DNA from: a virus
Lineage: Duplodnaviria > Caudoviricetes
Reading direction: 5' to 3' (one strand)
DNA length: 64,000 bases
IMG/VR virus record: IMGVR_UViG_3300017912_002752
Shown one piece after another: positions 45,587-45,658 of the stretch. The notes beneath the pieces were generated by a model, which made no database searches, was not told the DNA's origin, and saw only the letters and a program-made list of their open reading frames with translations. The number at the start of each line of letters is the position of its first letter. The first letter of the stretch is position 1. Both the position numbers and the translations under genes were made by a program.

Positions 45587-45658
45587 AGCGGAAGGGTGGC
45601 TCTGCCCCACCATCTTTGTACTGGTTGTACAACGAGTTTCTTTTAACTCTTCTCCCGC
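45587..45658 (-). ncRNA. Non-canonical tRNA-Gly-like cloverleaf (anticodon position ACC)
   Basis: GCGGGAG-AA-GAGTT-AAAAGA-AACTC-G-TTGTA-CAACCAG-TACAA-AGAT-GGTGG-GGCAGAG-CCACC-CTTCCGC-T, 72 nt, all four stems pair. Confidence 0.8.

Follow-up and report, generated by a model that had tools for sequence, protein, structure and literature searches.

The Mom protein of bacteriophage Mu transfers glycine from Gly-tRNAGly to the N6 position of adenine in double-stranded DNA, and the product is rearranged on the base into N6-carbamoylmethyl-dA; Mom needs the body of tRNA-Gly and rejects Gly-tRNAAla (PMC13219725). This glycine chemistry is recent, it was described in a 2023 preprint (bioRxiv 10.1101/2023.03.24.534169) and in a 2026 paper (PMC13219725). 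The authors of the Mu study assumed that the phage scavenges host tRNA and noted a possible translation cost; phage-encoded donor tRNAs go unmentioned in their paper (PMC13219725). Non-proteinogenic tRNAs that serve a non-ribosomal transferase have been reported so far only from staphylococci, where the NP1–NP3 tRNAGly of S. aureus and S. epidermidis are glycyl donors for FmhB, FemA and FemB (PMC7826273). Our literature search found no publication stating a link of a tRNA-Gly-like RNA to Mom.

Here, we analyzed a tRNA-Gly-like RNA encoded in a 64,000-nucleotide stretch of viral DNA, hereafter called the window. The window is part of the genome of an uncultured myovirus (34% G+C), whose relatives have genomes of ~170–180 kb. 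Its genes include those for a T4-type baseplate wedge, primase, GroEL, a CobS-like ATPase and thymidylate synthase.

The RNA locus in the window

Read as the reverse complement of its interval in Table 1, the RNA has the sequence GCGGGAG AA GAGU UAAAAGAA ACUC G UUGUA CAACCAG UACAA AGAU GGUGG GGCAGAG CCACC CUUCCGC U. It has the canonical four-arm layout, with a 7-bp acceptor, a 4-bp D, a 5-bp anticodon and a 5-bp T stem. The unconstrained MFE fold (−27.8 kcal/mol) is this cloverleaf with one extra C32-G38 pair, and none of 200 shuffled sequences was equally stable (z = −4.17), in agreement with an earlier, sequence-only reading that had described a 72-nt cloverleaf with all four stems paired. 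Compared to canonical tRNA, the core is altered: A8, U14, A18-G19 and G54-G55-C56-A57-G58 stand in place of the U8/A14/G18-G19/T54-Psi55-C56/A58 set, and A33 in place of U33. The same reading had listed G1-C72, C2-G71, G3-C70, U73 and C35/C36 as kept, and U8, the D-loop GG, U33 and the T-loop TTC/A58 as lost (A8, A33 and GGCAGAG in the RNA); each of these assignments agrees with the sequence.

Bacterial tRNA-Gly identity comprises G1-C72, C2-G71, (G3-C70), U73, C35, C36 and a G10-Y25 pair with G45 (PMC9976931). The window RNA holds this entire GlyRS set, including G10-C25 with G45, as had been recognized for the retained bases, and it is probably chargeable with glycine. ARAGORN did not call the RNA in the window, and Rfam RF00005 gave no match to it even at E ≤ 10, just as had been expected of tRNA scanners. 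ARAGORN did call a tRNA-Ala and a tRNA-Glu on the same strand, which confirms the position of the RNA between these two genes.

The proposal that the RNA directly follows a promoter was supported as well. The upstream site (Table 1) contains TTYGTATATT, which occurs 7 times in the window, compared to 1.5 times expected, and precedes genes on the coding strand. In relatives, the first RNA copy has the same upstream motif at the same spacing, and in the related genome G002, this motif stands before the RNA and likewise before PolB, the clamp and the HTH-Mom operon. The site in the window would thus presumably act as a promoter. A longer form, TTTGG-N(about 17)-TTYGTATATT, is found at window positions 14725, 35616, 39763, 45683 and 51415 (-), before replication-type genes and the RNA, and about 22 times per genome in relatives. 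The Bacteroidetes promoter consensus TTTG-N-TAnnTTTG showed no enrichment in the window. The best Mom match among cultured phages, Polaribacter phage P12002L, gives no more than a hint of a Flavobacteriia host.

The space between the RNA and tRNA-Glu is occupied by a branched hairpin. Because the close relative L003/L027 has no such hairpin, it is, judged by alignment, an insertion separate from the tRNA-like RNA. Long hairpins of similar size, unrelated to this one, also adjoin the RNA in contigs L021 and L026; these RNA-side hairpins could be mobile elements, processing sites or small RNAs. Elsewhere in the window (44034-44799, minus strand), two adjacent ORFs (151 and 111 aa) correspond to the N-terminal and the C-terminal half, respectively, of one kinase family, phrog_10255. 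The pair, close to a thymidylate synthase homologue and to a gene of 2OG-oxygenase/glycosyltransferase type, may represent a split or frameshifted kinase gene.

Table 1. Features at the RNA locus, in window coordinates
Feature	Position	Strand	Evidence
tRNA-Ala(UGC), canonical, upstream neighbor	45793-45719	-	ARAGORN; Rfam, 67.3 bits
Promoter-like site TTGGAA-N17-TATATT, contains TTYGTATATT, 24 nt upstream of the RNA	45683..45711	-	Repeated phage motif
72-nt tRNA-Gly-derived cloverleaf RNA, phage 'GGCRG T-loop' family	45587..45658	-	Sequence, fold, R1 score, covariation
Parts of the RNA: anticodon loop CAACCAG; discriminator U73; C74 next	45587 (U73); 45586 (C74)	-	
Branched hairpin, ~65 nt, between the RNA and tRNA-Glu	45522..45586	-	Fold z = −3.65; alignment with relative
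tRNA-Glu(UUC), canonical, downstream neighbor	45517-45445	-	ARAGORN; Rfam, 57.3 bits

Homologues, elbow and anticodon loop

Homologues were collected through a neighboring 89-aa protein, through two DNA patterns and with a covariance model, R1, built from 11 distinct copies. The number of distinct homologues grew from 11 to 61 and then to at least 108, from more than 190 viral and metagenome contigs. R1 gave 105 matches in 66 viral loci and at least 99 in at least 80 metagenome loci, with more in whole viral records. The window RNA matches R1 over its full length (97.1 bits, E = 2e-21; the window copy is one of the 11 model-building sequences) and has the D loop UAARAGAA, T loop GGCRGNN and anticodon loop NNNCCAN of the family. 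Usually, a phage has two copies, which lie in tandem 3–5 nt apart or up to about 500 nt apart.

A T-arm pattern gave 102 matches in 185,579 species genomes, with no family member among the 80 matches listed; these 80 were chance matches in GC-rich DNA, the best scoring 25 bits with R1. Blastn of the RNA against 50,697 phage records gave no match among cultured phages. The family, found in viral and metagenome contigs, thus appears to be phage-only.

In the 11-sequence alignment, all 242 of 242 cells pair and 10 of the 22 pairs show compensatory changes, which answers the call of the sequence-only reading for homologues and covariation. All four stems covary in the family. The covariation score is 0.426, compared to 0.163 for shuffles, none of 500 shuffles reached it, and the signal was lost when partners were slid by one to three columns. 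C35-C36-A37 is invariant in 105 of 105 members with 7-nt loops (108 distinct members in all); the anticodon bases were absent from every search pattern. U73 is present in 108 of 108 members, which have the acceptor GCG...CGC followed by U73-C74; the 3′ CGC-U belonged to two search patterns, so this invariance is partly a search effect, though matches found by R1 only keep it too. The 32/38 pair is Watson-Crick in 101 of the 105 7-nt-loop members (C-G in 90, U-A in 6, A-U in 5), the other four have C32-A38. G49-C65 and U51-A63 are invariant across the 108 members. Both partners of the 8-14 tertiary pair change together, with A8-U14 in 50 sequences and U8-A14 in 5; the D loop retains A18-G19-N-A21, and the T loop retains C56 and R57. 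The strong covariation and the large family bear out the earlier suggestion of selection: by these comparative data, the RNA is under selection and is derived from tRNA-Gly.

These results bear directly on the view, which we judge to be highly improbable, that the RNA is a tRNA-Gly pseudogene in decay or simply a tRNA-shaped mark at which the tRNA transcript is processed. Rejection by tRNA scanners and absence from some relatives (L007 and G005), where the RNA is dispensable, would suit this view; 108 distinct sequences with perfect pairing and many compensatory changes, invariant loops and anticodon bases 35–37, the usual two copies and a conserved promoter of their own would not. In addition, a processing signal would have no need of C35-C36-A37 or U73, and the R1-only matches argue against an artefact of the search patterns. 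An arms race centered on the anticodon stem was also considered, it was dropped since tRNA-Glu and tRNA-Arg of the same phages show like compensatory change.

The sequence-only reading took the loss of U8, GG, TTC and A58 as a sign of a non-ribosomal role, and this argument was not supported. The odd elbow (A8-U14, A18-G19 and T loop GGCRG) is common to tRNA-Phe, -Ala and -His genes with normal U33 loops. In related contigs, tRNA-Phe(GAA) and tRNA-Ala(UGC) lack the D-loop GG and have T loops of the form NGCRN. A gene resembling tRNA-His(GUG) has A8 and the T loop GGCAGUA; the U33 loops of all three are normal. Basal family members have U8, A14 and the loop CUUCCAA, and in the 40-kb tRNA regions examined in G008 and G009, the basal member is the only Gly tRNA among about 21 tRNAs. 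Because the elbow is shared by normal-loop tRNAs and because of these basal members, the lost U8, GG and TTC alone are not proof of a non-ribosomal role. We infer that the family elbow is alternative rather than broken, with A18-G55, G19-C56 and G54-G58.

Aquatic phages seem to use an alternative elbow commonly, and ARAGORN recognizes only some of the tRNA genes that have it. Genes for tRNA-Phe(GAA) and tRNA-Ala(UGC) and a tRNA-His(GUG)-like gene, without D-loop GG and with the T loops AGCGUAA, AGCAAAG and GGCAGUA, are found at L091:582-657, L126:2343-2417, L112:2686-2760 and L473:401-472. If the A8-U14, A18-G55, G54-G58 elbow is as widespread in aquatic phages as it seems, real tRNA genes are being missed in annotation.

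Because the elbow is shared with normal-loop tRNAs, it is the anticodon loop that is informative for a non-decoding role. Of the 97 members with a 7-nt loop in the derived A8 clade, which includes the window copy, 56 have A at position 33, 38 have U, 2 have G and 1 has C, and three more members of the clade carry 8-nt anticodon loops. Some otherwise identical RNA copies differ solely at position 33. Different from this, the ordinary tRNAs of the same loci have U33 in 205 of 207 distinct sequences, and the decoding constraint on the A8 clade therefore appears relaxed. At position 34, 87 members have U and the other 18 have A, with no further base; this fits AT bias and also fits anticodons that read all four GGN codons. 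Such anticodons are reportedly known from the work of Lustig 1993 and Boren 1993.

Similar loops occur in other Mom-bearing lineages. In G035, two tandem tRNA-Gly(UCC) genes carry G33 on a normal elbow; in G036, the T loop is normal and is accompanied by A8 and the 8-nt loop CAUUCCAG; and in G039 and G041, GGCAG occurs with either G33 or an 8-nt loop. The recurrent theme across lineages is a decoding loop that is damaged while glycine identity stays intact. Further tRNA-Gly-like genes with the 8-nt loop CAUUCCAG lie at L127:5445-5517, L389:201-273 (minus strand) and L390:201-271, some of which have both a D-loop GG and a T loop that is canonical throughout; as variations on this theme, these genes may be non-decoding or cause frameshifting.

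We also applied a 3-bp EF-Tu rule to the T stem, taken from Table 2 of PMC3239215 and used as weak evidence only. The RNA scores +0.6 kcal/mol, equal to the staphylococcal non-proteogenic tRNAGly, by a weak rule that gives +2.0 to a canonical-looking tRNA-Gly(UCC) in L145. By the same weak rule, which thus also rates that canonical-looking gene as weak, the T stem of the co-resident phage tRNA-Gly(GCC) is 1.2–1.7 kcal/mol stronger.

The anticodon loop is also where the main rival explanation must be weighed, namely that the RNA is a translational tRNA-Gly with an odd but working elbow. It would read GGA/GGG through UCC, or several GGN codons through UCC or ACC with C32, it would serve an AT-rich genome encoding long Gly-X-Y proteins, and it may double as a donor. 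Although we consider this reading unlikely, it has substance. The shared elbow and the basal, sole-Gly members of the ~21-tRNA clusters are what it predicts, and the stem substitutions resemble those of ordinary tRNAs of the same phages. U33 is kept in 38 of the 97 A8-clade members with a 7-nt loop, but it is lost in about 60% of the clade, compared to 1% of other tRNAs, and some members have 8-nt loops. All other tRNAs of these phages read A-ending codons, a set into which UCC would fit, but ACC is an anticodon avoided by tRNA-Gly genes (PMC6720975). While G002, G003, G005 and G006 have no canonical UCC tRNA, G010 and G050 hold the RNA alongside a canonical tRNA-Gly(UCC), in G010 at a distance of 27 kb from the 25-tRNA cluster, and G005 has neither the RNA nor a replacement tRNA-Gly. 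The weak predicted EF-Tu T stem also counts against translation, and translation alone would leave the linkage to Mom, given below, unexplained. Because about 38% of the A8 clade keep U33 with UCC and basal members resemble ordinary decoders, a translational or dual role may still apply.

As a side observation, G010 is a complete 270-kb phage with a tmRNA (L257:5546-5913) within its 25-tRNA cluster; two tRNA-Gly-like RNAs lie 27 kb off.

Linkage to Mom and DUF4338 genes

Among the records at least 84% complete, 12 have both Mom and the RNA (G002, G012, G003, G013, G014, G004, G006, G011, G010, G034, G035 and G050), one has neither (G005) and none is discordant; G035 was counted as RNA-positive through its G33 variant with a normal elbow. 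Mom and the RNA are also both present in the less complete records G017, G051 and G032. DUF4338 tracks the Mom and RNA pair. The Mom-family proteins of these phages score 150–165 bits with PF25680, and R111 and S124, the catalytic residues of Mu Mom, are invariant in five phage paralogs. G019 at first looked like an exception, with the RNA and without Mom; this record is fragmentary, matches a portion of G010 at 100% identity and ends before the Mom region is reached.

G005 (94% complete) is the only close relative without the RNA and the closest fully sampled RNA-less relative of G002, their PolB proteins being 87% identical. It also lacks all three Mom genes and the DUF4338/DruA-like gene. 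Six G002 genes that are kept in G003 and G006 are gone from G005, and four of the six are the three Mom-family (PF25680) genes and the DruA/DUF4338-like gene. In G002, these four genes sit at three slots within the clamp loader/clamp/PolB module. The replisome module of G005 is intact and syntenic; two of the slots hold a methyltransferase-like gene and a 496-aa gene, the third holds a small unannotated ORF, and the RNA slot holds two DUF2589 genes. The replacement genes of G005 are located at L065:6259-6882 and 7636-9126 and at L006:2930-4144 (the 207-aa methyltransferase-like protein, the 496-aa protein, which has no Pfam match, and the two DUF2589 genes). These slots look like cassette exchange of DNA-modification systems.

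Adjacency was also observed in other contigs. When 186 loci with the RNA (1.29 Mb) were searched by tblastn for Mom and DruA-like proteins, 8 matches resulted, all within about 450 nt of the RNA. In the unrelated contigs L099, L125, L477, L520 and L551, a Mom-like gene begins 2–21 nt after the RNA on the same strand; PF25680 was confirmed for L099 and L520 only (118–138 bits), and the assignment in L125, L477 and L551 comes from tblastn. A DruA-like gene overlaps the RNA or stops immediately before it in L104, L144 and L485. Because the RNA-adjacent Mom proteins are only 31–35% identical to those of G002 and G010, the adjacency cases represent other lineages.

The window copy of the RNA does not adjoin Mom, which we count against a role as Mom donor. 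In favor of such a role, the genome of the window has a Mom-like sequence, which lies 33.5 kb past the window end and shares 83 of 177 short words with Mom1 of G002. In T4-like genomes, no shared protein neighbor recurs within 3 kb of the RNA; its neighbors there are clamp, clamp loader, thymidylate synthase and similar genes. The CCA-adding enzyme PF01743 was tried as a partner and rejected, it does not track the RNA. The Mom-bearing cultured phages P12002L, S-SSM7 and Aeromonas P19 have no family member. Because Mu and these three phages have Mom without such an RNA, Mom does not need one. Moreover, the co-occurrence reflects few independent events among related genomes, with one well-sampled loss lineage (G005 and the fragments G052 and G053).

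The neighboring genes also bear on the sponge and decoy ideas of the sequence-only reading. In the form weighed here, the RNA would titrate GlyRS or a tRNA-targeting defence, such as an anticodon nuclease or a TacT/AtaT2-type GNAT toxin acetylating Gly-tRNAGly. The RNA does keep U73 and G71, which are TacT identity marks (PMC9976931), but no defence or toxin gene tracks it. The variability of position 33 and of the anticodon stem could mean that the RNA escapes a nuclease that reads the loop, as has been suggested for tRNAs of phages (PMC10264068), but turnover of the anticodon stem is not faster than in ordinary tRNAs. Likewise, G002 and G005 encode a long protein with a CCA-adding-enzyme domain, but this gene does not co-vary with the RNA, and a sponge would leave the adjacency to Mom and DUF4338 genes unexplained. 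Nothing we found came out in support of either idea, and we regard them as quite improbable.

A possible private glycyl carrier and its known counterparts

We favor, with moderate confidence, the explanation that the RNA is a dedicated, non-decoding glycyl donor for Mom-type DNA modification. The sequence-only reading had suggested a non-ribosomal glycyl donor; comparative data favor this part of it, with DNA adenine, reached via Mom, as the most likely acceptor rather than the cell wall. By analogy, the RNA and Mom would form a viral counterpart of the staphylococcal tRNAGly/Fem arrangement. The RNA would be transcribed within the tRNA cluster from its own replication-class phage promoter and matured like a tRNA, by RNase P, 3′ trimming and CCA addition. 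Host GlyRS would charge it via G1-C72, C2-G71, G3-C70, U73, C35, C36 and G10-C25 with G45, and the charged RNA would serve as glycyl donor for the phage Mom-family GNAT enzymes. Mom would then move the glycine to N6 of adenine in double-stranded DNA, and the resulting N6-carbamoylmethyl-dA would protect the DNA from restriction. Lacking U33, often having A34 and having a weak EF-Tu-type T stem, the charged RNA would stay off the ribosome, and DNA modification during replication would be spared competition with translation for Gly-tRNA. This proposal draws on what was observed here, namely structure, conservation, covariation, the restriction to phages and the linkage in genomes with Mom and DUF4338 genes, and on the Mu literature for the Mom chemistry; transcription, processing, charging, exclusion from translation and use by the Mom paralogs are its inferred steps.

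In a wider form, which we rate as evenly balanced between right and wrong, many large aquatic phages would carry a self-contained, replisome-embedded DNA-glycylation kit. Its proteins would be two to three Mom paralogs and one of DUF4338/DruA-like type, and its RNAs one or two tRNA-Gly derivatives for private use, the latter repeatedly reshaped (N33, 8-nt loops, A34, altered elbow and weak EF-Tu stem), charged by host GlyRS and invisible to the ribosome. If true, the kit would include the first virus-encoded non-proteinogenic tRNA and the first tRNA dedicated to DNA modification. A ribosome-avoiding phage glycyl carrier that travels with Mom would remove the translation cost, and viral selection would then have split tRNA identity into 'chargeable' and 'decodable' parts. 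The odd tRNA-Gly would also be a genomic marker for tRNA-dependent DNA hypermodification that gene callers and tRNA scanners miss.

Like the staphylococcal NP tRNAGly, the phage RNAs are extra tRNA-Gly genes with NCC anticodons and kept GlyRS identity; they have a non-TTC T loop and no D-loop GG, could form a 6-bp anticodon stem with a 5-nt loop, have a predicted weak EF-Tu T stem (+0.6 kcal/mol in both) and are paired with GNAT-fold aminoacyl-tRNA transferases, here by genomic linkage. Unlike the staphylococcal RNAs, the phage family appears to have an independent, phage-only origin and stands outside their lineage, judged by the 80 matches listed of the 102 in species genomes. Its GGCRG loops and A8-U14 differ from the staphylococcal UGC/UGU, U33 is lost in the phage RNA and kept in the staphylococcal RNAs, and the proposed acceptor is DNA adenine via Mom, not lipid II.

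Compared to phage Mu, the partner proteins are likewise of the Mom family and have the R111 and S124 that are essential in Mu. Different from Mu, which has one Mom and uses host tRNAGly, these phages have two to three paralogs and a DUF4338/DruA-like gene in the replisome operon, together with an RNA of their own. The ssrA genomic islands of Dehalococcoides have a conserved tRNA-Gly-like 'pseudo-tRNA' physically joined to a mom gene (PMC3146451), as in L099, L520 and L551. Likened here by its description, that pseudo-tRNA differs from the phage RNA in that it is 76 nt long and is embedded in the reading frame of mom, on an integrative element of bacteria; no function was linked to it in 2011 (PMC3146451). 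Finally, the RNA shares its genomic setting and its cloverleaf with ordinary phage tRNAs, including the alternative-elbow tRNA-Phe, -Ala and -His, as well as the evolution of its stems and its type of elbow (A18-G19 with A8 or an NGCRN T loop). However, the alternative-elbow tRNAs keep U33 and normal loops; the Gly family departs from them in this respect and tracks Mom and DUF4338.
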